Assembly: GCA_963715055.1 (NCBI GenBank)
Contig: CAVQRB010000012.1
Coordinates: 1,640-65,639 of the forward strand
Length of the DNA stretch: 64,000 nt
Source: an uncultured Alphaproteobacteria bacterium
GTDB lineage: Bacteria; Pseudomonadota; Alphaproteobacteria; Rhodobacterales; Rhodobacteraceae
Direction of reading: 5' to 3'
The translations under genes were made by a program, and so were the position numbers. Under the pieces are notes generated by a model. That model saw only the letters and a program-made list of their open reading frames with translations. It had not been told where the DNA came from and ran no database searches. Of the stretch, positions 5,582 to 28,132 are shown in pieces. The number at the start of each line of letters is the position of its first letter. Within the stretch, counting starts at the first letter, position 1.

Positions 5582-5665
5582 GGGCGACAGGCCGCAAGGT
5601 GTGGCAGGGGACTGTAACTCCCTCGCGGAGACGCACGCCTGGTTCGATTCCAGGGTCGCCCACCA
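5582..5665 (+). tRNA. tRNA-Tyr: tRNA-Tyr (anticodon GTA), encoded CCA
   Basis: Hand-folded cloverleaf: acceptor GGGCGAC/GTCGCCC, D stem GCCG/TGGC, anticodon stem GGGGA/TCCCT with loop CTGTAAC, long variable arm, T arm CCTGG-TTCGATT-CCAGG, A-CCA end. Confidence 0.85.
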
Positions 5666-13803: not shown

Positions 13804-15404
13804 TCGCTCTTGGTCACTTTCTTGAACGAGTTGTCATTGAAGGATGGCCCGATGATGAAACCGTTCACGTTCTCGCGGATGCCCAGAACCTCGATCTCCT
13901 GGAACATGATCACGAAGGGCGATGTCTGTTGATGCTCGCGCTGCAGGGCGAGATACATCTCGGCCCGTTTGCCTGCATCCTTTTCCAGCACCGCAGCATC
14001 TGCGGCAAGGGTCATTTCCGGAATGTCCCAGGCGTTGCGCCATGCCAGCGGCTTGCTTGTCGCCTCGTCGCTGTTGTCGGGGTTGCGCGCGAATGTATCT
14101 GCGTTGGTGTGCGGGTCCTGATAGTCCGGACCCCAGCGACCAATGTAGATGTCATGGTTGCGGGCGCGGTACTTGGTCAGGGTCTGCTGGCCGTCCCCCG
14201 GGATAAGCTCCATGGTGATGCCGGCCTGCGCCATGGTCTGCTGGATCGCCTCGGCGATGGCGGTGATTTCCGGTGTGTTGCGGGTATCCATCGTCACCGT
14301 GAAGCCGTCGGCGAGGCCAGCCTGCGCCAGCAGTTCCTTTGCCTTCTCCACGTTGAGCGAATAGGGCGTCTCGCTCAGAGCGCCGAGGAAGCCTTCGGGA
14401 AGGAAGGCCTGATGCACCTTGACCTTGCCCTTCATGATCGTGTCGGCGATCGTCTGGTAATCCACCAGATATTTCATCGCTTCGCGCACTTCGGGCTTTG
14501 CAAGGTTCTCGTTCTTCTGGCTCAGGCCCAGATAATAGATCGAGCCCTTGGCACCGCTTTCGATCTTGATCTCGGGGTTGTCGGCAAGTGCCACGATCTC
14601 CTCGGCGCCGAGGTTGCGGGCAATGTCGATGTCGCCCTGCTCCAGCAGCAGCCGCTGCGTGGCGCCTTCGGGGATATGACGATAGATCGCGCGGACCATC
14701 GCCGGCGCCTCGCCGGAATAGGCATCGTTGCGCTCCAGCACCACGACCTCATTGGCGCGCCAGTCGCGAATGGTGAAAGCGCCCGAGCCTGCATAGTTAG
14801 TCTTGAGCCATTCATACCCGAAGTCGCCATTGGCTTCGTTGCTCATCACCAGTTCCTTGTCGACGACGAAACCGACGGTCGCCGTCAGGCAATAAAGAAG
14901 CAGCGTCGGCGCATAGGCCTTGTCCATCTCCAATTCGAAGGTCATGTCGCCGGTCTGGCGCACCATCTGGTCCACGTTGTCCGCGCTGAGGCCGAACTGC
15001 GTGAGGATGAAGGCCGGAGATTTGTCGAGCTTGACCGCGCGCTGCAGGGAGAACACCGCATCGGCCGCGGTGATCGGGTTACCGGAGGCAAAGGTCATGT
15101 CGGGGCGGATCACGAAGGTGAAGATCTTGCCATCCTCGGAGACCGACCAGCTTTCGGCCACGACGCCGAAAATGTCGGAGACATTATTGACGTCATAACC
15201 AACCAGCGGCTGGTAGCTGTTGCCGAGAATTTCCGACGCCGTGAACTCGAAGACTTCGGCCGGGTCGAGCGAAATGATGTCGTCGATCTGCCACGCCTGA
15301 ATGAGCGTATCCGGAGGGGTTTCCGCGTGGGCCGCGGGCGACGACAGGCAGAAAGAGGCTGTCACCACTGCGGAGGCTAATATCCTGGAAACATGTCTCA
15401 TCAA
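13800..15404 (-). CDS. ABC transporter substrate-binding protein, family 5 (peptide/nickel/opine type)
   Basis: Signal peptide ...SSPAAHA, 534 aa, family-5 SBP layout; first gene of the operon. Confidence 0.9.
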   Translation of the reverse strand: MMRHVSRILASAVVTASFCLSSPAAHAETPPDTLIQAWQIDDIISLDPAEVFEFTASEILGNSYQPLVGYDVNNVSDIFGVVAESWSVSEDGKIFTFVIRPDMTFASGNPITAADAVFSLQRAVKLDKSPAFILTQFGLSADNVDQMVRQTGDMTFELEMDKAYAPTLLLYCLTATVGFVVDKELVMSNEANGDFGYEWLKTNYAGSGAFTIRDWRANEVVVLERNDAYSGEAPAMVRAIYRHIPEGATQRLLLEQGDIDIARNLGAEEIVALADNPEIKIESGAKGSIYYLGLSQKNENLAKPEVREAMKYLVDYQTIADTIMKGKVKVHQAFLPEGFLGALSETPYSLNVEKAKELLAQAGLADGFTVTMDTRNTPEITAIAEAIQQTMAQAGITMELIPGDGQQTLTKYRARNHDIYIGRWGPDYQDPHTNADTFARNPDNSDEATSKPLAWRNAWDIPEMTLAADAAVLEKDAGKRAEMYLALQREHQQTSPFVIMFQEIEVLGIRENVNGFIIGPSFNDNSFKKVTKSE

Positions 15405-15839
15405 ATTACTCCCTTGATGTGAGATGGACAGGATCGCCCGGTGATCGGACGTCTCCCTGTCAGCCTTTCAATACGGTCCCAGCAGGTGAAGACTGTCAAG
15501 GACTTCCTTGATGACTGCCGGCAGGCGATTTTGAGCAAGCGTGTCGCGATCCCGCCTCGCACGACAAACAGCGGGCTTCTTGGCCTTCATGGCAGGACCA
15601 CCCAGGATATCCGGAAAAAATCCTTTTTTCCCATAGGACTGGGCGAGAATCGCTTGCCGGGAAGCCGTCCATTCTCCGGCAGTTTCCCGCAGGGTTTCAA
15701 TGGCTTTGCATGGCGCAGATGACCAGAGGGGATCGCGCGGGTTGGCGTGCATGGTCTGAAACCGCAGGCATATCGCCGATCTTCTGGATGCGCGCGATCC
15801 AAGCGAAGAGCCTGCGAAAGAGGCGTAAGGGGCCGCCTG

Positions 15840-16510
15840 TGATCCGTGGATCGCAAAGGGGAACAGCGTTCTGGTGACCGGGCTCCAAAATGGTATTGGC
15901 GCACCCAAGGCGCTTGGCCTCTTCGCAAGAGGCCGGGGTGTTGCCGTCAGCCTTCTTGATCGCGGCGGAAGGAACGCCGCCATGGTCGCTGAACGTGAGG
16001 CGGCGGTTGCAATGGTCGTCGCGCTCGACGTAACCGACGCGGCCAGCATCGAATGCGGCTTGGCCGATGCGGTGTCGCGACCCGGCGGTCTCGACATCCT
16101 ATTGGATAGCGCGAGGGTCGGCTCCAAAGATATCCGGGGGATGATGTTCCCCAAGGATATGCCGCAGGGGGAGTTGACGTGAATAACGTGGGCGCTCGGC
16201 AGGTCATGCGGGCAGAAGGTCGTGGAACCGCTCCTAAGCCTGCAGCCTGATTGGGTGGATTGCAGCAGGGTTTTTTGGCACCTGTTCGGGACCGCCATGG
16301 ACGCTGGAAGCCTTTGTCGAATGCTGCCGCTCCGAGCTCTCGGATTTCGGTATCGGGTTCTGCCTCATCGAACCCTGGGGCATGCCAACGGCCTTTTTTG
16401 ACGGCATGAACGCGCCGAATGACGCAGCACACAAAACTGAATTTGCCACCTCGCCCGCGAAGTTCAATCGCGGCCTGACCGGGATGCTCGACCTGAGAGC
16501 AAGATAGGAA
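15840..16510 (+). pseudogene. Short-chain dehydrogenase/reductase pseudogene (no start codon, frameshifted)
   Basis: Frame A reads KGNSVLVTGLQNGIG...LDVTD...GGLDILL (SDR N-terminus) and stops at 16182. Another frame reads LEAFVECCRSELSDFGIGFCLIEPWGMPTAFFDG (SDR C-terminal region). Boundaries approximate. Confidence 0.45.
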
Positions 16511-16882
16511 AGACATGGAAACCTGCTCACCACAAGGCAAGGGCCTCCGACGGCATCGGTGCGGCGACGCCCCGGCATGATCAAGACCAAATTTGGCGGC
16601 GCAAGGACCATGCCTCGCGGTCAGAACCGCGCCTCGGCAAACCCTGGGCCGAAACGTTGACGCCATCACGCACGTCCGGCAGAGCCACGGGCTTGCGAAG
16701 GGAGCACGGGAAATGGAGCGAGCGCATCACCGCCAGACGGACACTCTCGCGGCGCATCGTGAAACACAGAAAAGGTGAAGGTTTGACCATCCCGCCACAG
16801 GATGAAACCGCCCTGCCCGTGCCAAGCCAGTCATCTGAGACAGCGCTGTCGGACGCATCTGGCGCATCGACCGTCTGGCGGT

Positions 16883-17311
16883 TCAGGCGGTAGTGCCTGC
16901 CTCGAGAACAAATCGCACTCCACCCAGGACCACGTCACGGTAGAGGTAGAAGCCCATCTCGAGCGGCGGCAGGTCATCCGGAAATACCATCGGTTCGACT
17001 TCAATGCCGGCCTGCGCCACGATCTTGTTGACCAGATCCGCGACCGCCTGCGGTTCAGCCAGAGCCACCTCGCCATCGAGCATGAAGTCCTCCCATTCCA
17101 ACAGGTCGAACATCACCTGTCCCAACTTGTAAAAGGGATGCGGTTCGAGGATTTCGATCCATCGGGCGGCCCGGTCCGGAAATGCCCGTCGGAAACCGAC
17201 GCCCAGTCGGGCCAGCGTGCAGGCCGCGCCACGCAACCCGTCGTTCAGAGGCATCAAGCGCATCAGCAGCGCCACATCGGTTTCGGGCAGGTCGTCGAAA
17301 GTCAGGGGCAT
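16883..17311 (-). CDS. Hypothetical protein (142 aa), last gene of polyprenyl-synthase operon
   Basis: ATG 1 nt after stop of upstream gene (17313); high GC3; no family recognised. Confidence 0.6.
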   Translation of the reverse strand: MPLTFDDLPETDVALLMRLMPLNDGLRGAACTLARLGVGFRRAFPDRAARWIEILEPHPFYKLGQVMFDLLEWEDFMLDGEVALAEPQAVADLVNKIVAQAGIEVEPMVFPDDLPPLEMGFYLYRDVVLGGVRFVLEAGTTA

Positions 17312-17312
17312 G

Positions 17313-18968
17313 TCAAAGCGCCCTCGTTGTCACATAATTGGAGATTTGTCGCAGTACCGCCTTGCCGGGCGTTTCCGGAATGAAACTGAGGTCGGCCTCG
17401 AACCGGCGCACGCCCTGGTTGGCCAGCCGGTCGGCATGGGCGATGGCATAATCGATTGATCCCACCTTTTGCATCGCCGCCAGCATTTCCTCGGCAAGGG
17501 CGAAGTCCTTTTGAATGCGCGGCAGGGCATTGATCTCGGTCATGCGGGTCCGGACATCTCGTCTTGCCTCGCGAAAGAGGTGAATCATCATCACCGTGCG
17601 CTTCCCTTCCAGCAAATCGCCCAAGGCTTCCTTCCCGTAAAGTGCGGTTTCGCCGATGAGGTTCAGAATATCGTCCTGGATCTGGAAAGCGATGCCTGTC
17701 AGCCGCAGGCTTTCATTGAACCGGTCCAATAGTGCCGGGTCGGTCACGCCGGCCGCCACGGCCCCGATGCGGCAGGGGCTGATGCAGGTGTACCAGCCGG
17801 TCTTCTTGGTGCTCATCCGGCTGTAGTCAGCATCCCGGGACGGCACGAAGTTTCGCCTGATCCACCCCAGTTCAATGGCCTGTCCCTCGACGGTTTCGCG
17901 GCACATGTGCAGGATCTCGTGGATGATCCCAAGGGTTCGAGCCAAGCCGATGGTGCCGAGATTGGACAGCGTCATATCGACGGCAAAAAGATGCATGGCG
18001 TCGCCCGCGTTGACTGCCAGCCCGATGCCATGCGCCTCGTGCAGGGTCGGAAGGCCGCGGCGATGGGTGCTCTCATCGGCGATGTCATCATGCACCAGAA
18101 AGCCGTTGTGAAACATCTCGAGCGCCGCGGCCGCGCGCACCCCGTCCTCCATCCGCCCGCCCAGAGCCATGCAGGTGGCGATCACCAGTGTCGGACGCAG
18201 CCCTTTGCCTTCGCGAACCACATAGTCTTTCATGAGCGCATAAAGATCGCGCTGCGGCGGCTTGGCGGGGATCAGGCGCAGGATTTCCTCGACCACGCGG
18301 GTCTTGCAGATGTCCATGGTCATCAGCAGGTCGTTGTCGAAGACATCGTCGAGCGCCTGCCAGCTTTCGGCCTGCCTGCCGTTCCAGAGCGACCGCGCGG
18401 GTGCCAGCACCGGCTCCTGTCGCTCCAGCAGGTCCACGCCCGCCGGGTGGCGTTTATCCAACCAGTCGAGGGCAGGCCAAGCCGCGTCGTCCCAATAAGC
18501 TGCGCCGCGTTTGCGAGGCCGTGCCGCGGGCATTGCACCCGGCTCCCAGATACCGGCCCTGGAATCGCGGTAGTCGCTCCAGAGCGCCTGTACCACCCGC
18601 AGCCCGGACGCCCGTTGCGACAGCAGCCGGAAACAGCGCCAGACTGCCAACAGGTCCTCGCGCGAGCCGCGCATATCCAGCGACTGCTCGAGGGCCTGGT
18701 CGGAAGGCCGCTGGATCGCATCGAACAGCAGCATCAGGGCCCTGTCGTCAAAATGTACGGCGACATCGCTCGCGGTGTCTGTCGCCTGTTCGGCAGGAAC
18801 GACCTTCAGCGTACTCTGCCGCGCCTGCATCAGTGAGGAGGAACCATCACCGAACATCAGGTGCAGGCGAATCTGGCCCAATTCACGGGCCGCGGCCGCG
18901 ATGATCGCGGGCGCGCGCTTCGACAATGCGGCGATGGTGCCGTCAAGGACATCCGCGCCGTTAATCAC
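17313..18968 (-). CDS. Fusion protein: N-terminal SCP2-like domain + C-terminal polyprenyl diphosphate synthase
   Basis: C-terminal half has GKGLRP, FLVHDDIADESTHRRG (first Asp-rich motif), FQIQDDILNL (second motif), EGKRT. Start set at GTG 18968 (GGGAGGGG SD; GTGATTAA overlap with upstream stop) rather than ATG 19082. Confidence 0.8.
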   Translation of the reverse strand: MINGADVLDGTIAALSKRAPAIIAAAARELGQIRLHLMFGDGSSSLMQARQSTLKVVPAEQATDTASDVAVHFDDRALMLLFDAIQRPSDQALEQSLDMRGSREDLLAVWRCFRLLSQRASGLRVVQALWSDYRDSRAGIWEPGAMPAARPRKRGAAYWDDAAWPALDWLDKRHPAGVDLLERQEPVLAPARSLWNGRQAESWQALDDVFDNDLLMTMDICKTRVVEEILRLIPAKPPQRDLYALMKDYVVREGKGLRPTLVIATCMALGGRMEDGVRAAAALEMFHNGFLVHDDIADESTHRRGLPTLHEAHGIGLAVNAGDAMHLFAVDMTLSNLGTIGLARTLGIIHEILHMCRETVEGQAIELGWIRRNFVPSRDADYSRMSTKKTGWYTCISPCRIGAVAAGVTDPALLDRFNESLRLTGIAFQIQDDILNLIGETALYGKEALGDLLEGKRTVMMIHLFREARRDVRTRMTEINALPRIQKDFALAEEMLAAMQKVGSIDYAIAHADRLANQGVRRFEADLSFIPETPGKAVLRQISNYVTTRAL

Positions 18969-20019
18969 CGCCGGCCCCTCCCGAGAATTCCACGATGCCT
19001 CTGGTCTCGAGGCGGAAAGAGCGACCGTTGACGCGACCCGACATCTCGCAGGGACCGACGACTTCGTGCACGTTGAAGGCATTCAGGCTGGTTTCCGACG
19101 GAATCACGATCCGCACCGCCCAGTCGGCATCGAAATCCAGCACCACCCGGTCGTCGCCCTGCCGCGCCATGATGACAAGCCGCCGCGGCAAGGCCGATAC
19201 CGGCGCCACGCCGAGCAGGCCCGCGAGGGGCGGCGCCATCGACACCCGGTCACGGTCCATCTCGCCGCGCACCGCGAAACTGACGCAGCGGCGCGGGAAA
19301 TGCCGCACCATGCGCCCCTTGTGCCACAGCATGAAGGAGGCGGTCGCCTCGGCGGGCCTCGCGGCCGGACGAATGAAGGTAAATACACCCGCCCATTCCG
19401 GCGGCTCTCCCGCCTCGGCGTTCAGATCGTTGGCAAAGCCGAAGACCCATTCACCCAGATCAGGCCAGCCCCAGCGGCCGCGCACCCGTTCATGATACCC
19501 CACAAGATCCACCTGCGTCCTGCCCTTCGGCGTGACCCAATCGCCGACTGCCGTCACACCGGTTTCGGACTGCCACCGCAGATGTTGGTGGCGCGCGAAA
19601 ACCGCCGTCTGGCTGGTGCAGTTGCGGCTGGTGCGTGTCAACGCGAGATCAACGGCCGGGGACCCATCAGCGGCAGCAATGCTCAGACGCCCGGCCACCC
19701 CATGTGCATGGGGTCGCGTGAAGGCCGACCAGGGAGGCCGCCGGGTGGCGGCGTTGAACTGGCTGGTATGCCAGGGCCCCTCGCCGTCATGCAGCACGAG
19801 AATGGTGGCAAAGCGCTCGGTGCCCGGCGCTTCCCCTTCGGCCGGGCCGAGCCAGGATGAATTGGCGACCAGCGCCTTTTGCCCGTCGCGTGACAGAAAA
19901 GCGTAATGCAGCCAGCGGCGGTCAATCGGGTCGGTCAAGGGGCTGGCAGGAAAAGGCCCGGCAGGTCCGAGCCCAGTGGGCCGGGAAGACACCGCTTCGG
20001 AATACCGAAAGGACTGCAT
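18961..20019 (-). CDS. Hypothetical Trp/Gly-rich protein (352 aa); faint resemblance to CrtC/AttH-type hydratase fold
   Basis: AGGAG SD before ATG 20019; high GC3; motif GYHERVRGRWGW. Family assignment is only an impression. Confidence 0.6.
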   Translation of the reverse strand: MQSFRYSEAVSSRPTGLGPAGPFPASPLTDPIDRRWLHYAFLSRDGQKALVANSSWLGPAEGEAPGTERFATILVLHDGEGPWHTSQFNAATRRPPWSAFTRPHAHGVAGRLSIAAADGSPAVDLALTRTSRNCTSQTAVFARHQHLRWQSETGVTAVGDWVTPKGRTQVDLVGYHERVRGRWGWPDLGEWVFGFANDLNAEAGEPPEWAGVFTFIRPAARPAEATASFMLWHKGRMVRHFPRRCVSFAVRGEMDRDRVSMAPPLAGLLGVAPVSALPRRLVIMARQGDDRVVLDFDADWAVRIVIPSETSLNAFNVHEVVGPCEMSGRVNGRSFRLETRGIVEFSGGAGGD

Positions 20020-20157
20020 CGGCTCCTGCCCCCAAATCGAATTGTTTCATATTCGCAGATTGAATGGTATCATACTACCAGAAATAGAATAGAATTTCGA
20101 TTGCCATATACGTTCGGGCGCCCTGTTATTACGGCGCATTTCCCCTGGGAGGCCGAC
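20020..20157. promoter_or_regulatory. AT-rich divergent control region with repeats and sigma70-like boxes
   Basis: Direct repeats TCGAATTGTTTCATATTCG (20037-20055) and TCGATTGCCATATACG (20097-20112); TGGTA-N6-TACCA (20065-20080); tandem TAGAAT TAGAAT (20085-20095); TTGAAT (20060-20065). Confidence 0.35.
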
Positions 20158-20967
20158 GTGAAACCGAAAAAGACTTTGCCTTCAAAAGCTTCCGCCCGGT
20201 TCACCGCGATTGCGATCGAACCGCCCGATGCTCTGAAGCCGATTGCCATCAAGACTCACCGCGAGCTCTTCGCGAAGTCGCGTGAGATGGCCGAACGGGT
20301 CCGGGATAACCCGGAGTTCAGCGTGATGTTCCTGTCGAACCCTGTCCTTGCGCTCGAGGCCTATGGCATCAAGCTCAGTCCGGAATTGCGCCACCATGTC
20401 ATGGATACCCTGCGTCATCCGCCCAAGCTGCGTGCCCGCCGCGCGGAACTCGAAGCCAGCCTGGAGGAGGCGCTGGGTGAAAAAGCCAAGCCCACCGATG
20501 AGGCATGGATGGCCGATCTGGTATTCCGCAAACGCAAGATCGAGCCCCGTGACATCGGCAGCGGCGAGCCTGCCTACAAGCCGGCGCTGAATGCGGCCTC
20601 GGTCGAGCGTCTGCAAAAGGCGCGCCCCAAGGCCACGAAGCGCTACAGCGGCCAGCGCCGGTCGAAAGTGCAATTCTCGCTGACCGTCGCACCGCCTTCC
20701 AACACACTGCGACGGATGGACCTCGATGCCGATGTACCGGATATGAAACCGGCCGCGAAAGCCCCCAAGTCGCTGACGCTTGAAGAGGCCTGGTTCTACA
20801 AGGACGACGCCATCGTGAAGGAGGCGGTCGAGTTGGGCCAGATCATGCGCCGCGGCTTCCCCTTCAGAACGCCCGCCGAGTTTCGCGCCATCGCCAAGGG
20901 TGAAAAGGTCGACGCCTTCCGGCGCTTTGTCCGCGCGGTCAGGATCCGCGAGGTGACGCCGGAGTGA
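20158..20967 (+). CDS. Orphan protein A (269 aa), very basic, with NHLP/nitrile-hydratase-alpha-like helical motif
   Basis: GTG start with GGGAGG SD 5 nt upstream (ORF 19906..20967 trimmed); motif DNPEFSVMFLSNPVLALEAYGIKLSPEL. Confidence 0.65.
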   Translation: MKPKKTLPSKASARFTAIAIEPPDALKPIAIKTHRELFAKSREMAERVRDNPEFSVMFLSNPVLALEAYGIKLSPELRHHVMDTLRHPPKLRARRAELEASLEEALGEKAKPTDEAWMADLVFRKRKIEPRDIGSGEPAYKPALNAASVERLQKARPKATKRYSGQRRSKVQFSLTVAPPSNTLRRMDLDADVPDMKPAAKAPKSLTLEEAWFYKDDAIVKEAVELGQIMRRGFPFRTPAEFRAIAKGEKVDAFRRFVRAVRIREVTPE

Positions 20968-22697
20968 GCAACACATCGAATTTTGACTATTGCGTGCAAT
21001 TCGGCATCGAGGCCGTGCGCGAGGTCTTTCACCTCGCCCTCAAGAATGAAGATCTTTTCCCCCACAACCTGCCGCCGCTGACCCGCGATTTCGGCGGCCA
21101 TACCGCCACTGTGCGCGTGCGCCTGCTTGACGACATGACCGACAGCGCGGATCTGTCTTTCCAGGACGAAAAGCACATCCTCTTCGATCTGCCCATCGAG
21201 ATCGCGGTCGAAACACCCGACGCCCCGGACCCGTCGCTGGCGACGGTGACACTGCAATCCACCGTCCGGGCTCCCGGTGCTCTGGCGACCTGGCCGGTAT
21301 CTGGAGACGATCAGCTTGGACTGGAGTTTTCAGGCATCACGGCGGCAGATGTCGAGGTGCCCGCGCTCACCGGCCTGCCCACACTGGATGCCGCACGCTT
21401 TGTCGCCGCGTTGCATACGAAATACGAAACCCTGCCGAGCCACAGTTTCACCCTCGGCGGCAACACGCTGAACATCTACGACGGGACACGGGACGCAACG
21501 CTGATCCCGGGCAACAAGGCCGGTAACCCCGAAATCACTGCGGCGCTCGAAAACCACGGCGGCAAGCAGTACCTCAGGATCACCATGCCACTGCACGCCA
21601 ATGTCACGGTGCCCGTCACCTATGCAAGCTATGGCACGGCGACGCTTTGGCGCGAGGTCGTGACCGGGGGCGGCACGGTCCGGGTGCTGATGGAGACCGA
21701 GCCCGCGGACGACCCGCTTGCCACGACCATCGTCTTTGACAACGGCGGCATCGGCGGCATCATCGCCGACCAGCTCGAGCCCTTGCTGATCACTCAGATC
21801 GCAGCTTTCGCCCCGGTCGAGGAACCCTGGTTCGACGAAGACAGCGCGCGCGCCCTGATCCGGCAGGAAACCGCAGGCTACCTCGCGCCGCGCCGCTTTC
21901 CCTTCTACACGCCACAATCGGGCGATTCCGAGGTTGCGCTGGAGACGCCGGTCGGCTTCCTGCTGCTGGCCAATGAAACGCTCGCGATCCTGATGAACCG
22001 GCGGACCGGCACCGCGGCGGATGACGCAGCACCCGATGACTTTCGAGGGGCGCACATCCTTGCACTGGCGCTCAGCCGGGCGGTTCTGGACGAAACCATC
22101 GCCGATGCCATCGCAGAGGAATTTCCAGGCCTTGCCAGCGGCGGTCACCGGATCGAAACGGACGAAGGCGACGCCACGCTGCAATCGCTGTCGGTCACCC
22201 CATCAGACCCCGGCAGCCACGATGAAAGCGAGGGGCATCTCTGGGTCTCGGGCGAGGCCGAGGTGCACATAGACTGCTGGCCGGATCCCGACGTCAGCTT
22301 TGACGGCCCGATCTTCCTGCGCCTTGATGTGACGGAAACCGACACGGAATGCAGCGCTGTGTTCCGCGCCGAGATGGGCGAATTCGATGCCGGCCAGAGC
22401 TGTTGCGACGTTTTCGTCGATTTGATCATCCCGATCGTCGGCTGGATCATGCTGGGTGTCATCGAGTCCATGATCGACCGGGTCGGCGGCGAGCTGGCCG
22501 AGGAATTCGCCGGGGCACAGGAACGTCAGATGCAACCCATCCCGACCTTCGTGGTCGGCGTGGCCGAACTGCAGGCCTGCCTTGAATCGGTGCAGACCTC
22601 ATCGCAAGGACTGGTGATGCCGGGCAAGCTGCGCATCCGCCGCGAAGGAACGAGTTTCGAAGACCTGCTTGAAGGCGGCGACCTGCCGCGCCCCTGA
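20964..22697 (+). CDS. Orphan protein B (577 aa), acidic, one C-terminal hydrophobic helix
   Basis: GTGA start/stop overlap with A; high GC3 throughout; no family recognised. Confidence 0.75.
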   Translation: MSNTSNFDYCVQFGIEAVREVFHLALKNEDLFPHNLPPLTRDFGGHTATVRVRLLDDMTDSADLSFQDEKHILFDLPIEIAVETPDAPDPSLATVTLQSTVRAPGALATWPVSGDDQLGLEFSGITAADVEVPALTGLPTLDAARFVAALHTKYETLPSHSFTLGGNTLNIYDGTRDATLIPGNKAGNPEITAALENHGGKQYLRITMPLHANVTVPVTYASYGTATLWREVVTGGGTVRVLMETEPADDPLATTIVFDNGGIGGIIADQLEPLLITQIAAFAPVEEPWFDEDSARALIRQETAGYLAPRRFPFYTPQSGDSEVALETPVGFLLLANETLAILMNRRTGTAADDAAPDDFRGAHILALALSRAVLDETIADAIAEEFPGLASGGHRIETDEGDATLQSLSVTPSDPGSHDESEGHLWVSGEAEVHIDCWPDPDVSFDGPIFLRLDVTETDTECSAVFRAEMGEFDAGQSCCDVFVDLIIPIVGWIMLGVIESMIDRVGGELAEEFAGAQERQMQPIPTFVVGVAELQACLESVQTSSQGLVMPGKLRIRREGTSFEDLLEGGDLPRP

Positions 22698-22730
22698 CGC
22701 CGGGGCCTGAACGCGTGAAAGGAGAGGACG

Positions 22731-24110
22731 ATGCCAACCGAAAGAGGCTTTGTGGAAACGCTCGGGGTAGGACGCGCCGGGCTTGTCGAAGCGGCGGTGC
22801 TGCACGGCGACGGGTCACGAGCGATCTATACCGTCGCCGATCTGGATGCCGACCCGGAACGCTTCAACGAAAGGCTGTCGAAATTCGGCATCCTGCGCGA
22901 CGCGATGGACCGGGCCGAACCGGTCGAGATCGAATTCGACCGATCCGATGGCTTTCGCCCGGTCGAAAGCGTCAAGCGGCTGACCCGGGATGCGCTGGAA
23001 AGGCCCGAGGAAACCTCGGTCGCCTCGGGCATGGTGGTCGGGCTTTCGGTATCCTTCGAGGTGAACATCAATCCCTTTGGCGAAGCGTCGGATCGCGCCA
23101 TGCTCGCCTTGCTGACCGGCACCGGCGTGGTCAACTTCGTCATCCGCCTGCAGGCGCCCGAACGCCATGCGGCCATGGCGATGGTCGACATCGCCCGTGA
23201 CGCGCAGGCCTCCGGTGCAAGCGTGACAGTGACCTTCGGCACCAAGAACCGCGAGGTCACGCAGATCGCGCGCGACGATCTGGCCGGCGCCAGCGGCCAG
23301 GAGACCGAGCAGTTTTCGGCCTTTGTGGAGGAGATCACCCATACACCGGTCTCCAACCTGATGCTGGTCGCCGTGACCACCGCGCCCGAGTTCGTCTTGG
23401 AGGGAAATGTTGTCCCGCTGGAGGGTTTTACGCCGGAGCTGCGCAATCTGGCGGTGGTCTACAACTCGCCGGAATACCTGCTGCTTCAAGCTGCGCTGCG
23501 CGACAAATTGCGGGTGGAACTGATGACCCTGCGACCGCGCGAGCGCGACGATCCGGACAAACAGCCGGATGAACCGGTCGGCGACGAAATCCCGCGCAAT
23601 GATGTGACGGGGATAGCGCGCTATGCCGAGGCGAAACCGGCCGCAATGAGCGGCGACTCAAAGCTCCGGACGGAAGCGATGGGCAAAGCCACGCGGGCCA
23701 CCTACCTTCTGCGGGGCGCCACCCTTCAGCACGCTCTCTGCTCTGCCAGCCGGCCCGTCTGGATCGAGGTCAACCGGCGCGCGCTGGACCTGGGGCCGGA
23801 CGAGGAATGCATCGAAGGCCTGCCCTCCAGCGACATGCGTCCGCAGACCATCCGCGAGTTGAACCTGCCTTACCGCGCCGCGTGGATCGGCTATGGCTGC
23901 TTCAACCACGGCGTCTACCGCATCCAGATCGCCACGGATCGCGATGTCACCGTGTTTGTCGATGGCGAGGAAATCTGCCTGCATCGCGACAAGGCGGGCG
24001 ACACGGTCTTCGGCCATGCCTGCCTCGAAGGCGACCATGAAATCCGGATCGTGTTTGAGAATTGGAAATGCAAGGCGAAGTTTGATATGGACGTGTATCG
24101 CATCCGCTGA
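22731..24110 (+). CDS. Orphan protein C (459 aa)
   Basis: GGAGAGGA SD before ATG; high GC3; C-terminal approx 90 aa look like a beta-sandwich (GVYRIQIATDRDVTVFVDGEEI...); no family recognised. Confidence 0.75.
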   Translation: MPTERGFVETLGVGRAGLVEAAVLHGDGSRAIYTVADLDADPERFNERLSKFGILRDAMDRAEPVEIEFDRSDGFRPVESVKRLTRDALERPEETSVASGMVVGLSVSFEVNINPFGEASDRAMLALLTGTGVVNFVIRLQAPERHAAMAMVDIARDAQASGASVTVTFGTKNREVTQIARDDLAGASGQETEQFSAFVEEITHTPVSNLMLVAVTTAPEFVLEGNVVPLEGFTPELRNLAVVYNSPEYLLLQAALRDKLRVELMTLRPRERDDPDKQPDEPVGDEIPRNDVTGIARYAEAKPAAMSGDSKLRTEAMGKATRATYLLRGATLQHALCSASRPVWIEVNRRALDLGPDEECIEGLPSSDMRPQTIRELNLPYRAAWIGYGCFNHGVYRIQIATDRDVTVFVDGEEICLHRDKAGDTVFGHACLEGDHEIRIVFENWKCKAKFDMDVYRIR

Positions 24111-24127
24111 CCGGAAAGGAGTTCCGC

Positions 24128-24631
24128 ATGGCCGACGAAGAGGTCGAGGAGACCAGAACCATCATTGTGACCCAGCGCTGTGCTGAGAGCTTTGCGCTGT
24201 CCGGCAGCGAGCAGCATCCGCCAATGCAGCACCGGGTGCAGGCCGATATGGTCCACCACACCGACAAACCGGTCGTCCACATGCATCTGTGGAACGAGGA
24301 TTGCGTGGGCAAGCTGGACGTGCAGCACAGGTCCAGCACCGACACGGAACACCCGTTTCACGTAGCGCACCGTTTCGACACGCCGCATGCCCAGACCCAT
24401 GAGATGCAAACCTCGCTGGCAGCACCGATCCACCACGCCCTGCAGATGCGCACACCGTTGCAGATAAGGTTCTGCAATACCTGGCAGGTGGCATCGGATT
24501 ATTCGGTTCAGGTGGCCCTGCGCGGGCGGCCTTTCCTCGACATCCGCCTGACCGGCGCGACTGTGGCCACGCCGCAGCCCTGCCCTGACGACGACTGCGC
24601 ACCCGATCCGAAGGCGGCACAGCATCCATGA
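24128..24631 (+). CDS. Orphan protein D (167 aa), His/Cys-rich
   Basis: GGAAAGGAG SD; 15 His and 5 Cys in 167 aa by my count; high GC3. Confidence 0.6.
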   Translation: MADEEVEETRTIIVTQRCAESFALSGSEQHPPMQHRVQADMVHHTDKPVVHMHLWNEDCVGKLDVQHRSSTDTEHPFHVAHRFDTPHAQTHEMQTSLAAPIHHALQMRTPLQIRFCNTWQVASDYSVQVALRGRPFLDIRLTGATVATPQPCPDDDCAPDPKAAQHP

Positions 24632-25185
24632 GCGAGCAAAAGCAAGACCCGCGTCCCGGCGAGGCGGTTGGCGAGTTGGTGTCCTCGGCGCTGAAACTCT
24701 CTGCGGCCGTCGTGCAGACCGTGGCGGAGGCCGCAACCGGCAAGCCGCAGGCAAACCGCCCCGGAGACACGCCTCTGCAGTCGATGATCCGGCATGGCAC
24801 CACTGCCGCAAGCAGCATCCTGACCACGGTCATGAGCGCCACCCGCGAGGGGTCGGCCGCCGAACCGGCAGCGGCGCCGGTGAACGCGCCGCCGCGCGCC
24901 CCTCGCGTGGCGCGCGGCTCCAGCCTTCGTCTGCCGTTGTCGGTGGACAATCTGCGCGATACCGTCATGCAGGACATCGAGCCGCGCTTGGTCGACGCCG
25001 AAACACCGACACCGTTGCATGTGAGTTTCAAGCCGGAAAAACTGACCATCGCACCGAATGATTTCGAGAAGCTGACGGTCCGCGTGGACGTACCCGAGGA
25101 CACTCCCCCCGGGCGATACACTTTTGCCTTCACCCTGCCGGGTCAGGAAACCCAGCCGGTGTCGCTCTCGGTCGAGGTCGTGTGA
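24628..25185 (+). CDS. Orphan protein E (185 aa): Ala-rich helical N-terminus, Pro/Ala linker, beta-sandwich-like tail
   Basis: ATGA overlap with D; tail ...LTVRVDVPEDTPPGRYTFAFTLPGQETQPVSLSVEVV. Confidence 0.65.
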   Translation: MSEQKQDPRPGEAVGELVSSALKLSAAVVQTVAEAATGKPQANRPGDTPLQSMIRHGTTAASSILTTVMSATREGSAAEPAAAPVNAPPRAPRVARGSSLRLPLSVDNLRDTVMQDIEPRLVDAETPTPLHVSFKPEKLTIAPNDFEKLTVRVDVPEDTPPGRYTFAFTLPGQETQPVSLSVEVV

Positions 25186-25305
25186 ATGCCTGAACAGACG
25201 CAATCACGGACTCAACAACAGCCACATTTGCTGGTATCCTTACACCAGCCTCATCGGTCTTGCCGCCGTTTGACCGGGGCAGGTCATTTGTCAGGAGTTT
25301 GAAGC

Positions 25306-25686
25306 ATGCAGGACATCAAGACGGAAGAAATCGCCTCCGCTGGCAATGAGCGCGACCGGTTCCGCGGGCTCGACAATGTCACGGCAGCCGCGCGCGAACT
25401 GGCACAGCGCCTGCGCGAGACGACCGTGGCCGTGGGCGAGGTCGCCGAACAGGAGTTGGCCTTTGTCGTGGGGCTGGCCGAAGACATCCGCGACAAGTCG
25501 GTGTCGCCCGAATTGCTGAAAGAAGCCCGAAGCCTGCCGGTCCTCAGCGGCCTGAGGGTGACGTCGCACCGCGTGGTTGATCTCGGTTTCGATGCAGTCA
25601 GCGTCGGGGTCAAGCTTGGGTCGGACGCTTTCGACGATTTCCTTGCGCCGCGCGCGGAGCGGCGGTCGATTGCCACGGCAGGCTGA
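25306..25686 (+). CDS. Orphan protein F (126 aa), acidic helical
   Basis: AGGAG SD 8 nt before ATG; 120-nt gap after E, so it may be its own transcription unit. Confidence 0.55.
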   Translation: MQDIKTEEIASAGNERDRFRGLDNVTAAARELAQRLRETTVAVGEVAEQELAFVVGLAEDIRDKSVSPELLKEARSLPVLSGLRVTSHRVVDLGFDAVSVGVKLGSDAFDDFLAPRAERRSIATAG

Positions 25687-25919
25687 AAAACCGCCGATCT
25701 AGGTCCGGCAATCCCCTGCATCACAGGGACCCGAACGGCGAAAGCCAGGCAATAACCCGTTTGGCCGTGGCCCTGTGAGCAAAGCGCAGAAGGGCGCGTG
25801 AACCTGCGGCGCGTCCTGATCCCTCTGAATGCGCTGGGTCAGGTCACGGTCAGACGCGAACCGGTGCCCTGCCCTGCGTCCAGCGATGTTCTTCTGTCAG
25901 CGCCAAATCCCGAGATGGA

Positions 25920-27077
25920 TCAGTGGTCCAGCTTCACCCAGGCCGCGTTGCGGGCCGAGGATTTCACGCAAGCCGAGACGAACTGCACGCCCAGCAAACC
26001 ATCCTGAACCGTGGGGTAAACCACAGCCTCGGGTACAGGCTTGCCGGAGCGTGCAGCGATGATTGCTTCCGCCGCCTCTGTGTAGATGTTGGCAAATCCT
26101 TCCAGATAACCTTCCGGGTGCCCGGCCGGAACACGGGACACGCGGCCCGCCGCCTCTCCTGCCCCTGCGCCATTGCGCGTGATGAGCCGCTTTGGTTCCC
26201 CGAACGGCGTGTACCAGAGATAATTGGGATCCTCCTGCGCCCATTCGAGCCCGCCTTTTTCGCCGTAAACCCGCAAGCGGAGCGCGTTTTCATTGCCCGG
26301 GGCAACTTGCGACGACCACAGCATCCCACGCGCACCCCCGTCAAAACGCAAAAGGACATGCGCATTGTCATCCACCTGGCGCCCCGGCACGAAGGCCTGG
26401 ATGTCCGCGGCGAGGCTGTCCACCCTCAGGCCGGTGACGAAACAGGCGAGGTTGAAGGCATGCGTGCCGATGTCCCCGGTCGAGCCGCCGACACCGGACT
26501 GCGCGGGATCGGTGCGCCAATTTGCCTGTTTGAAATCCTGTTCGACCGAGAGCCAATCCTGCGGGTATTCAACCTGCACCACGCGAATAGGCCCCAGTTG
26601 GCCACTGGCTACCATCTCGCGCGCCTGGCGAACCATAGGATAGCCCGTGTAATTGTGAGTCAGGATGAAAAGCGCGTCGCTCTCTTCGGCGGCTTTCACC
26701 AGTTTCTTGGCATCCGCCAGCGTCGAGGTCAGCGGCTTGTCGCAGATCACATGAATTCCGCGCTTGAGAAACTCGCGCGCAGCAGCGTAGTGGACATGGT
26801 TCGGAGTGACGATGCTGACAGCTTCGATACCGTCCTTGCGGCGCGCCTCTCGCTGCGCCATCTGCCGGAAATCGTCATATATCCGGGCCAAGCCAAGCGC
26901 TTCGCCGCTTTCGCGCGATTTCTCAGGCGTGGAACTGAGTGCGCCCGCGACCAGTTCAAACCGGTCGTCCATCCGCGCGGCGATCCGGTGCACGCCCCCG
27001 ATGAAGGCATCCTTGCCCCCGCCCACCATCCCGAGGCGGATCCGACGGCCCAAGGCTTCGTTGCGTCCCGTCACCAT
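25920..27077 (-). CDS. Gfo/Idh/MocA-family oxidoreductase
   Basis: IRLGMVGGGKDAFIG Rossmann N-terminus, VICDKPL motif; TGATG overlap with upstream gene. Confidence 0.9.
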   Translation of the reverse strand: MVTGRNEALGRRIRLGMVGGGKDAFIGGVHRIAARMDDRFELVAGALSSTPEKSRESGEALGLARIYDDFRQMAQREARRKDGIEAVSIVTPNHVHYAAAREFLKRGIHVICDKPLTSTLADAKKLVKAAEESDALFILTHNYTGYPMVRQAREMVASGQLGPIRVVQVEYPQDWLSVEQDFKQANWRTDPAQSGVGGSTGDIGTHAFNLACFVTGLRVDSLAADIQAFVPGRQVDDNAHVLLRFDGGARGMLWSSQVAPGNENALRLRVYGEKGGLEWAQEDPNYLWYTPFGEPKRLITRNGAGAGEAAGRVSRVPAGHPEGYLEGFANIYTEAAEAIIAARSGKPVPEAVVYPTVQDGLLGVQFVSACVKSSARNAAWVKLDH

Positions 27078-28132
27078 CAGTCGATCCCCAGCATCTTGCG
27101 GTTCGCGGCCTCATCCGTTCCACCGTCGGCAAAATCGTCGAAGGCACGCTCCGTCACGCGAATGATATGGTCGGAGACGAATGCCGCTCCCTCGCGCGCC
27201 CCATCCTCTGGATGTTTGAGGCAGCACTCCCATTCGACAACGGCCCAGCCGTCGAAGTCATTGGCCGCCATCTTCGAAAAGACCGCCCCGAAATCCACCT
27301 GCCCGTCGCCCAGCGAGCGGAAGCGCCCGGCCCGGTTCACCCAAGGCTGGTACCCTGAATAGACGCCTTGCCGTCCTGTCGGGTTGAACTCCGCGTCCTT
27401 GACGTGGAACATCTTGATGCGCTCCTTGTAGATGTCCAGATGATCAATGTAATCAAGACATTGCAGGACATAGTGGCTTGGATCGTAGAGCATGTTGCAG
27501 CGGCTGTGATTGTCGACGCGTTCCAAAAACATCTCGAAGGTCACGCCGTCGTGCAGGTCTTCTCCCGGATGGATTTCGTAGCAGAGATCAACCCCGTTCT
27601 CCTCCGCATGATCCAGAAGCGGCCGCCAGCGTCTGGCCAGTTCATCAAAAGCGGTCTCGATCAGGCCTGCGGGCCGTTGCGGCCAAGGGTATACGTAGGG
27701 CCAGGCGAGCGCCCCGGAAAACGTCACGTGCTGAGAGATCCCCAGATTTGCCGAAGCGGTGATCGCTTTTTTCACCTGATCGACCGCCCAGGCTTGCCGC
27801 GCCTTGGGATTCCCATGCACACTTGGGTCTGCAAACCCGTCGAATGCAGCGTCATATGCCGGATGGACGGCGACCAACTGGCCTTGCAGGTGCGTCGACA
27901 GATCCGTCACTTCGATGCCGTTTTCTGCCGCCTCGCCCTTGAAGCTGTCGCAGTAATCCTTGCTCTCGGCAGCTTTCGCGAGATCAAACAGGCGGGCGTC
28001 CCAACTGGGCACCTGCACGCCCTTGTAGCCGCAGTCAGCCGCCCATTTGGTGATGGCACCCCACGAGTTGAACGGGGCTTCATCCCCGGCAAATTGCGCC
28101 AGAAAAAGCGCAGGTCCCTTGATCGTTTTCAT
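27077..28132 (-). CDS. Sugar phosphate isomerase/epimerase (xylose-isomerase-like TIM barrel)
   Basis: Start at MKTIKG (GGGAGGAAAGAGG upstream); EIHPGED, FHVKD motifs typical of the AP-endonuclease-2/XI-like barrel. Confidence 0.85.
   Translation of the reverse strand: MKTIKGPALFLAQFAGDEAPFNSWGAITKWAADCGYKGVQVPSWDARLFDLAKAAESKDYCDSFKGEAAENGIEVTDLSTHLQGQLVAVHPAYDAAFDGFADPSVHGNPKARQAWAVDQVKKAITASANLGISQHVTFSGALAWPYVYPWPQRPAGLIETAFDELARRWRPLLDHAEENGVDLCYEIHPGEDLHDGVTFEMFLERVDNHSRCNMLYDPSHYVLQCLDYIDHLDIYKERIKMFHVKDAEFNPTGRQGVYSGYQPWVNRAGRFRSLGDGQVDFGAVFSKMAANDFDGWAVVEWECCLKHPEDGAREGAAFVSDHIIRVTERAFDDFADGGTDEAANRKMLGID

Follow-up and report, generated by a model that had tools for sequence, protein, structure and literature searches.

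A candidate terpenoid gene cluster combining a prenyl diphosphate synthase with a predicted AttH-fold protein in an uncultured alphaproteobacterium

The DNA analyzed in this study (the window) is a 64,000-nucleotide stretch from an uncultured bacterium of the Rhodobacteraceae (GenBank assembly GCA_963715055.1, contig CAVQRB010000012.1, positions 1,640 to 65,639). It carries three adjacent minus-strand genes, designated A, B, and C. B encodes a prenyl diphosphate synthase with an additional N-terminal domain, and A encodes a protein with the predicted fold of AttH and CrtC. We regard the cluster as a candidate terpenoid module that pairs a prenyl synthase with an AttH-fold enzyme. On balance, we favor the view that A-B-C encodes the conserved biosynthetic core of an isoprenoid pathway that is accessory, has spread horizontally, and is as yet uncharacterized; the cluster probably produces an isoprenoid lipid of medium length and modifies it chemically. 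The three genes are as follows.

18961–20019, minus strand: gene A, 352 amino acids (aa); ATG start with GGAG ahead of it (open reading frame (ORF) list).
17313–18968, minus strand: gene B, 551 aa, GTG start; SCP2-like domain plus trans-prenyl diphosphate synthase (ORF list, Pfam, orthologs).
16883–17311, minus strand: gene C, 142 aa, ATG at 17311; small acidic protein, putative partner or adaptor (ORF list, alignments).

The three ORFs were confirmed in the ORF list and the window sequence, and independent gene calls on identical metagenomic contigs also gave 352, 551, and 142 aa. The initial annotation had described three coupled genes, an overlap at 18961–18968, and a C start 1 nt after the B stop, all of which were borne out. 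The overlap of 8 nt, GTGATTAA at 18968–18961, contains the GTG start of B and the TAA stop of A, and the ATG of C (17311) lies 1 nt past the TGA of B (17315–17313). The sequence GGGAGG is located 8 nt upstream of the GTG at 18968. This GTG is in frame with the longest ORF (17313–19082); the start at 19082 was rejected, and ortholog N-termini align at the GTG.

The gene neighborhood survey that had been proposed for this locus was carried out with one genome per species (185,579 species). The A-B-C cluster was found at 66 loci, i.e., in 66 of the 185,579 species, and its distribution is rare and patchy, covering Alpha-, Beta-, and Gammaproteobacteria, Actinomycetota, Chloroflexota, Acidobacteriota, Gemmatimonadota, Cyanobacteria, and Myxococcota (about nine phyla). 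Among the loci with enough DNA, B is the next gene after A in 60 of 61 and C the next after B in 56 of 59, and B aligns over its full length across these loci. This strict synteny across phyla is far beyond chance. No homolog of A was found on 72,556 plasmids. The cultured carriers are Sphingomonas sp. LB2R24, Rhodobacter sp. SW2, Paraburkholderia sp. XV, Actinosynnema, Saccharothrix, and Streptomyces species.

In Paraburkholderia sp. XV (locus L003, positions 1–1427 and 17733–21083), Mu-type and mutator-type transposases lie on one side of the cluster and MerR/TPR, Ku, and LigD genes on the other, flanks that are consistent with a mobile island. In Streptomyces, the neighbors of the trio are a berberine bridge enzyme (BBE)-type oxidase, a luciferase-like monooxygenase, flavin reductases, a nitroreductase, and a major facilitator superfamily (MFS) transporter, as in a natural-product cluster. 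The rarity, the patchiness, and the Paraburkholderia transposases argue for an accessory rather than a housekeeping pathway.

Protein B is composed of three parts.

18549–18968, minus strand: predicted SCP2-fold lipid-binding domain, aa 1–140, closest to UbiJ (model, Foldseek, hhalign).
18324–18548, minus strand: linker, aa 141–215, of low model confidence and variable length, with conserved WPALDxL and ARSLWxG (alignment, model).
17316–18323, minus strand: catalytic prenyl diphosphate synthase domain, aa 216–551 (PF00348, PDB match).

The sole part of B that matches Pfam is aa 242–480 (polyprenyl_synt, PF00348; 181.4 bits, cut-off 27), in agreement with the earlier statement that only the C-terminal half is recognizable. 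The first aspartate-rich motif (FARM) is DDIAD (aa 294–298, 18075–18089) and the second (SARM) is DDILN (aa 432–436, 17661–17675); GKGLRP, KKTG, and EGKRT are also present. The PF00348 score, both Asp-rich motifs, and the conserved diphosphate-binding Lys/Arg motifs identify B as a trans-isoprenyl diphosphate synthase. The best PDB match of the catalytic domain is the Thermus geranylgeranyl diphosphate (GGPP) synthase 1wmw (3e-53), and DDxxD and DDxLN are common to both. Automatic pipelines label B with the generic name GGPP synthase. Of the NCBIfam equivalogs, IdsA_Meth scored best (175.5 bits, cut-off 468), followed by the encapsulin cargo (167.8, cut-off 450) and GGPP_syn (148.6, cut-off 500), and B stayed below the curated cut-off for each of IdsA, GGPP_syn, CrtE, farnesyl diphosphate (FPP) synthase, octaprenyl synthase, and encapsulin cargo. 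Since these scores are far below the cut-offs, no specific product is assignable to B by homology. The residues G/F at positions −5/−4 before the FARM are nearly invariant in the B family. Chain-length mutagenesis of FPP synthases has been published, and by analogy with it the G/F pair suggests a C15–C20 product, probably C20.

The N-terminal extension is a fixed trait of the B family, since the orthologs are all approximately 550 aa, and ortholog comparison indicated that the SCP2 fusion is specific to the B clade. The N-terminal domain was modeled with AlphaFold2 (aa 1–215, with 33 orthologs). The predicted local distance difference test (pLDDT) score was >90 for aa 1–80 and 101–140 and 68–82 for aa 81–100, and the topology was alpha-alpha-beta4-alpha-alpha-beta-alpha-alpha; confidence was low over aa 145–215. 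The top Foldseek match was the SCP2 domain of UbiJ (6h6p/6h6o; probability 1.0, E 4e-6, target-normalized template modeling (TM) score 0.59–0.65), and 26 further matches at E ≤1e-3 were nearly all SCP2 proteins or SCP2-like domains, including classical SCP2s. According to the model, aa 1–140 are an SCP2 fold that is closest to UbiJ. The original designation of B as an SCP2-like domain joined to a polyprenyl synthase is thereby upheld, for SCP2 at the level of the fold (model and Foldseek) and for the catalytic half by an intact PF00348. No match to Pfam SCP2 (PF02036) was obtained at E up to 0.1, and a homolog search with the N-terminal domain alone as the query returned 5 fragments only.

For protein A, a search of 5.8 billion proteins yielded 414 relatives at E ≤0.001. 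The best 120 of these 414 are mostly approximately 350 aa long and are named "hypothetical", except for one UniRef entry, a 77%-identical homolog named "AttH domain-containing protein". An alignment of 28 sequences had a mean column identity of 58% and 87 invariant columns; the invariant stretches include RRWLHYA, LRWQSE, GYHERVRGxWxWP, WVFGF, IPSE, HE, and GIVEF. Ten arginines are invariant, and the isoelectric point (pI) is 9. A had no match in Pfam or NCBIfam. The AlphaFold2 model of A (pLDDT 83, predicted TM score 0.85) is all-beta, and its 26 best PDB matches in Foldseek all have one fold (E 6.5e-9 to 1.6e-6, TM 0.44–0.62). The top match was AttH NE1406 (2ich, E 6.5e-9), followed by kievitone hydratase and 25-phosphosteroid lyase; CghA, Fsa2, and Phm7, which are decalin-forming pericyclases (AttH-fold Diels-Alderases), were also matched. 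The models of A and B were compared with known structures via Foldseek matches only. The model confidently predicts a double beta-barrel of the AttH/CrtC type for A, which is the fold of hydratases acting on isoprene double bonds. A faint CrtC/AttH resemblance had been noted for the 352-aa protein at the outset; it holds for the fold (model and Foldseek) and not for the sequence family.

Among the AttH-fold proteins, CrtC, kievitone hydratase, and the archaeal hydroxy-glycerol dialkyl glycerol tetraether (hydroxy-GDGT) synthase Hgs hydrate isoprene C=C bonds, and 25-phosphosteroid lyase acts on a steroid. The three hydratases have been assigned to this family in the literature. In CrtC (Rubrivivax numbering), His239, Trp241, Tyr266, and Asp268 are essential, and Trp283 and Trp285 stabilize the cation (PMC4717167, PMC12402844). 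H146..W149, Y175-x-E177, and W191-x-F193 of A have a spacing similar to that of the CrtC catalytic set, as compared by spacing alone. We infer that Y-x-E...W-x-F of A may be the equivalent of Y266-x-D268...W283-x-W285 of CrtC. The proposed segment is as follows.

19435–19500, minus strand: proposed active-site segment of A, with G174-Y175-H176-E177 (GYHERVRGRWGW, residues 174–185) and W191-V-F193; invariant in the A family.

Protein C (pI 4.3) has the conserved core LCTLARxG...YKGGQxLFDLxEWEDFMLDG and the distal motif LPxLExGFYLYxDVVLG. It had no match in Pfam, NCBIfam, PHROGs, PADLOC, or PDB sequences, and the C-family profile, tested with regard to HexA/HepS-type small subunits, matched no PDB sequence at E up to 1. 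In Actinosynnema and Saccharothrix, C is fused to lectin-like and DUF11 domains and forms the N-terminal domain of a 600–967-aa protein (L032:12683–15433, L041:12686–15586, and L045:3997–5796). Besides C, these fusion proteins contain a linker rich in Pro, Glu, and Ser, a beta-sandwich that resembles L-type lectins, DUF11, and additional repeats; a signal peptide was not obvious in them.

The initial annotation saw no obvious pathway context for the synthase. This view has to be revised, as a divergent operon, D1–D5, together with D6 (20158–25686), is co-inherited with A-B-C in most lineages.

20020–20157, no strand: A-D1 intergenic region, 138 bp, AT-rich, divergent; presumed promoter/regulatory region (sequence).
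20158–20967, plus strand: D1, 269 aa, basic (pI ~10), GTG start, ribosome-binding site GGGAGG (gene calls, alignment).
20964–22697, plus strand: D2, 577 aa; conserved Cys and His, hydrophobic segment at aa 483–501; GTGA start overlapping the D1 stop.
22731–24110, plus strand: D3, 459 aa; conserved Cys residues.
24128–24631, plus strand: D4, 167 aa, His-rich; motif PIHHALQMRTPLQxRFCNxW.
24628–25185, plus strand: D5, 185 aa; helical N-terminus and CARDB/DUF11-like beta-sandwich; ATGA start overlapping the D4 stop.
25306–25686, plus strand: D6, 126 aa, helical.

Coupling within the D operon is tight: starts and stops overlap (GTGA, ATGA), and the ribosome-binding sites are good. For D1, the start of the longest ORF at 19906 was rejected; it would overlap the 5' end of A by 114 nt, and homologs, gene calls, and the GGGAGG site support 20158. 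The block D1–D6, divergent from A, is kept in 30 of the 48 loci with enough flank. This co-inheritance points to a unit of approximately nine genes. The "three-gene operon" of the initial annotation thus stands as a coupled and syntenic A-B-C, but not as the complete functional unit. D5 has weak Pfam matches to fn3_5 and NPCBM_assoc. The profiles of D2, D3, and D4 found no PDB sequences, and D2 also had no Pfam match when scanned member by member. A BPI/TULIP-like character of D2, suggested by a sequence pattern only, had no support from any tool. Profile-profile tests revealed no relation between D2 and D3, D3 and D5, or D4 and D5.

The gene ispH (LytB, PF02401) adjoins D6 in approximately 20 scanned loci, where D6 follows IspH. 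In Sphingomonas sp. LB2R24 (GCA_036663875.1, L151:2312–3643), IspH and a D6-like domain are encoded in one 444-aa ORF in which the three IspH cluster cysteines are present; D6 is thus physically linked to IspH in this strain. In the window, ispH is missing, D6 is inverted (co-directional with D5; convergent in all other loci), and D6 is followed by a Gfo/Idh/MocA oxidoreductase gene (25920–27077, minus strand). These three features indicate that this end of the cluster has been rearranged.

A promoter/terminator scan gave a single sigma-70-like match in the A-D1 intergenic region (plus strand, 20046–20073), which alone is not significant. Downstream of C, the segment 15405–16882 is a gene-poor region of approximately 1.4 kb between C and a peptide ATP-binding cassette (ABC) transporter operon, with one called ORF of 66 aa. 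Neither a tRNA nor an Rfam match was found in it, and it resembles no genes of related loci; it could be the edge of the inserted cluster. No RNA family was matched in window positions 15000–27500. The only tRNA of the window, tRNA-Tyr (GTA anticodon, 5582–5665), is far from the cluster and is not obviously an integration site. Among the Pfam-assigned genes within 10 kb on either side, there was no crt, ubi/men, hopanoid, terpene-synthase, or encapsulin gene; the earlier claim that no terpene cyclase, carotenoid, quinone, or hopanoid gene is nearby therefore holds in this range.

The A-family profile was also run against 1.84 billion cluster representatives. It matched 327 clusters, a handful of which were orthologs and the rest a sister family of approximately 345 aa. 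The sister motif AYHDHNWGxFxWGxDFxWxWG aligns to GYHERVRGRWGW followed by PxLGEWVFGF in A. Some sister proteins have a C-terminal SCP2 domain, and some have sub-threshold matches to Tocopherol_cycl (E 0.006–0.045) or DUF2804 at the shared motif. The sister-family profile found no PDB sequence. The sister gene was 1–2 kb away from a B-like synthase in 11 of the 17 metagenomic loci that were informative. The gene order of the sister clusters is as follows.

Position 1: prenyl synthase, B-like, 43–49% identity to B aa 217–549, without the SCP2 domain.
Position 2: D5-like beta-sandwich protein (hhalign to D5, 95%, E 3e-8).
Position 3: helical protein of ~139 aa, possibly C-like (hhalign 60%, E 9e-5).
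Position 4: AttH-like protein, the sister of A.
Position 5: stand-alone SCP2 (hhalign to the B N-terminal domain, 94%, E 1e-7).
Position 6: large flavoprotein; no link to the window cluster found.
Position 7: STAND-type regulator; no link to the window cluster found.

The stand-alone SCP2 protein scored 20.1 bits against Pfam SCP2, for which the gathering score is 21.3. When hidden Markov models (HMMs) of C and D1–D6 were searched in the sister loci, D5 was matched, and C, D1–D4, and D6 were not. Because SCP2 is fused to the synthase in the window, to the AttH-like enzyme in some relatives, and is free in others, the three are likely to act together. A second sister subtype was observed in metagenomic loci (L118, L128–L149): an AttH-like domain with a C-terminal SCP2, approximately 500 aa. 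It adjoins a MacB/FtsX-type ABC transporter, often with DUF72 and SURF1 genes, and is usually not adjacent to a prenyl synthase (adjacent in 1 of 7 loci).

The designation "non-canonical isoprenoid module" given to these genes at first is supported by the A-B-C synteny, by IspH in approximately 20 loci, and by the sister clusters that pair an AttH-like gene, a synthase, and SCP2. In the pathway we propose, IspH would supply isopentenyl diphosphate (IPP) and dimethylallyl diphosphate (DMAPP). The C-terminal domain of B, by class a short-chain all-trans synthase, would join IPP to an allylic diphosphate, giving GGPP or, less likely, FPP. The SCP2 domain may sequester the hydrophobic chain, keep the product or intermediate soluble, and pass it to the next enzyme in a UbiJ-like manner. 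A would then act without a cofactor: the putative acid Tyr175-x-Glu177, backed by Trp149 and Trp191, would protonate a trisubstituted isoprene double bond, and the carbocation would be quenched by water to a tertiary alcohol or captured intramolecularly to a ring. The ten invariant arginines and the pI of 9 suggest that the diphosphate ester itself may be the substrate. C, which is small and acidic, is presumed to dock onto A or B as a partner. D1–D5, D6, and IspH would belong to the same functional unit, in which the D proteins may have downstream binding, tailoring, or effector roles.

Several results weigh against this pathway. The 28 A-family members, scanned against PF09410, PF07143, and PF17186, had no match at E up to 10; the A-family profile found no PDB sequence, and the family had no match to Pfam tocopherol cyclase. 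The equivalence of the A and CrtC motifs is a match of spacing, not a superposition, and the candidate acid of A is Glu177 where CrtC has Asp. Since the AttH fold also houses Diels-Alderases and an unassigned AttH protein, the fold does not fix the chemistry of A. The chain length of the B product is read from positions −5/−4 only, by analogy with mutagenesis. D1–D6, apart from the weak signal of D5, had no match in Pfam, NCBIfam, PHROGs, PADLOC, or PDB sequences, as was the case for C. In Actinosynnema, Saccharothrix, Streptomyces, and Nocardia, no D operon is present within 10 kb, and it may therefore not be essential to the core chemistry. The parts are known at the fold level, A and the SCP2 domain fail the sequence-family tests, and C, D1–D4, and D6 are in no described family. 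No paper was found on this cluster, on the pairing of an AttH-like enzyme with a prenyl synthase, or on an SCP2-synthase fusion.

A bolder form of the pathway, which we regard as possible though doubtful, is that A and its sister family constitute a new AttH-fold, metal/cofactor-independent, class-II-like terpene cyclase that acts directly on an SCP2-presented prenyl diphosphate, with new accessory machinery. If this is true, the cyclase together with C, D1–D4, D6, and D5 would define an unrecognized, phylum-spanning terpenoid machinery with a new scaffold or cellular role. Alternatively, A may be a calycin-like binder that, with SCP2 and C, carries the polyprenyl lipid of B to a D1–D5 assembly with a structural, membrane-remodeling, or effector role. 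AttH NE1406 has no assigned activity and is described only as lipocalin-like and lipid-related; SCP2 and Ig-like beta-sandwiches (D5, and DUF11 on the Actinosynnema C) are typical binders, not enzymes; and the D proteins are large, conserved, and devoid of an enzyme signature. However, the 87 columns invariant in 28 A sequences include Y-H-E, H..W, and E/H/R placed as in CrtC, which is unusual for a carrier, and several actinomycete genera keep A-B-C but have no D operon. We consider the carrier role unlikely. Quite improbable is a prenylquinone/chromanol pathway in which B supplies the quinone side chain and A closes the ring like tocopherol cyclase. It is favored by UbiJ being the best structural match of the SCP2 domain and by the weak Tocopherol_cycl matches of the sister proteins; these matches, however, are under the gathering score and do not occur in the A family itself. 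Neither a UbiA-type prenyltransferase, a ring-modifying ubi/men gene, nor a methyltransferase was present in the window or conserved in the relatives, and the best matches and motifs of B indicate a short-chain synthase.

The sparse, patchy spread across phyla, the transposases and Ku/LigD genes beside the Paraburkholderia copy, and the six conserved proteins without a known family would also suit a conflict or defense island, i.e., an anti-phage or toxin system with D1–D6 as effectors and an isoprenoid as the signal or weapon. However, none of the nine proteins matched PADLOC or PHROGs, no nuclease, ATPase, protease, or sensor domain was recognized in them, no homolog was found on the plasmids surveyed, and the Streptomyces context consists of redox tailoring enzymes and an exporter; we judge this explanation quite improbable as well, if anything slightly more so. 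Very improbable is a set of ordinary carotenoid genes, with B as CrtE and A as a divergent CrtC acting on lycopene-type carotenoids. CrtC does belong to the fold family of A, CrtE is a GGPP synthase, and Rhodobacter sp. SW2, which we take to be a phototroph, is among the carriers. However, neither phytoene synthase (CrtB) nor desaturase (CrtI) was found within 10 kb on either side or among the conserved neighbors in the 66 loci, A has no PF07143 match, and the carriers include Streptomyces, Dehalococcoidales, and Paraburkholderia, lineages that are presumably not phototrophic. We know of no crt cluster with an SCP2 fusion or protein C. The generic annotation of B would fit a housekeeping FPP/GGPP synthase with chance neighbors, the least credible explanation to us: the A-B-C order is kept across approximately nine phyla, which refutes the chance part, the family occurs in so few of the species genomes, the SCP2 fusion is clade-specific, and the genes are translationally coupled. 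A family 2 encapsulin cargo was also rejected, as the neighbors had no encapsulin-like Pfam match and the N-terminus of B is predicted as a confidently folded SCP2 domain, not a disordered region.

Bacterial terpenoid pathways are usually found via classical terpene synthases. The A-B-C cluster has none. If A acts on the B product, as in the pathway proposed here, a combination of an AttH-fold enzyme, a prenyl synthase, and a built-in SCP2 chaperone would be added to the routes of isoprenoid modification in bacteria, and the set of synthase, SCP2, AttH-like protein, small helical protein, and beta-sandwich protein would serve as a genome-mining signature. Cofactor-free, regioselective hydration or cyclization of unactivated isoprene double bonds is wanted in biocatalysis (PMC12402844). 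The cluster also gives a biochemical context to the annotation-free families C and D1–D6, and its presence in cultured strains makes it directly testable.

Among known systems, the CrtE-CrtC (PF07143) pair resembles the cluster in having a GGPP-synthase-type enzyme and an AttH-fold enzyme that is cofactor-independent (putatively so for A), with Y-x-(D/E) and W-x-(W/F) in CrtC-like spacing, and the CrtC-type hydratase accepts terpenes over a wide range of lengths, farnesol and geranylgeraniol among them (PMC4717167, PMC12402844). In contrast, the cluster lacks the sequence membership, phytoene synthase, and desaturase, and it has a candidate Glu acid, the SCP2 fusion, C, and the D operon. Hgs (bioRxiv 10.1101/2025.10.20.683597) and the fungal kievitone hydratase (7a0t) share the predicted fold of A and need no cofactor to convert an isoprene/prenyl double bond into a tertiary alcohol by hydration; moreover, the hydratase gene overlaps the gene of the substrate-making enzyme. 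They differ in their substrates (membrane tetraethers/prenylated isoflavonoid), in the partner, which is a radical S-adenosylmethionine (SAM) desaturase, and in the absence of SCP2.

With regard to B, the N-terminal domain is structurally most similar to UbiJ (6h6n/6h6o/6h6p), which belongs to a soluble metabolon for ubiquinone synthesis. The SCP2 domain of UbiJ holds polyprenyl (quinone) intermediates for soluble enzymes. UbiJ, however, is a separate protein in a ubi context, whereas B carries the domain in fusion with the synthase and has no ubi genes nearby. The Thermus thermophilus GGPP synthase 1wmw and archaeal IdsA-type enzymes are similar to the catalytic domain, 1wmw being the best sequence match with the same DDxxD/DDxLN; B differs by its 215-residue N-terminal extension, the G/F at −5/−4, and a score of 175 versus 468 bits. 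The family 2 encapsulin cargo polyprenyl transferase (NF041169), the second-best NCBIfam match, is likewise a synthase with an N-terminal extension, but the score is 168 versus 450 bits, the extension of B is a predicted folded SCP2 domain, and no encapsulin-like gene was recognized nearby.

Two further systems are precedents for chemistry other than hydration. The 25-phosphosteroid lyase (9g2i, 9fzn) has the predicted fold of A and acts on a steroid phosphate ester. Tocopherol cyclase (PF14249), in which protonation of a prenyl double bond leads to ring closure, has weak sequence similarity to the sister proteins only. The relation of both to the cluster is at the fold level or sub-threshold, and neither is linked to a prenyl synthase gene.

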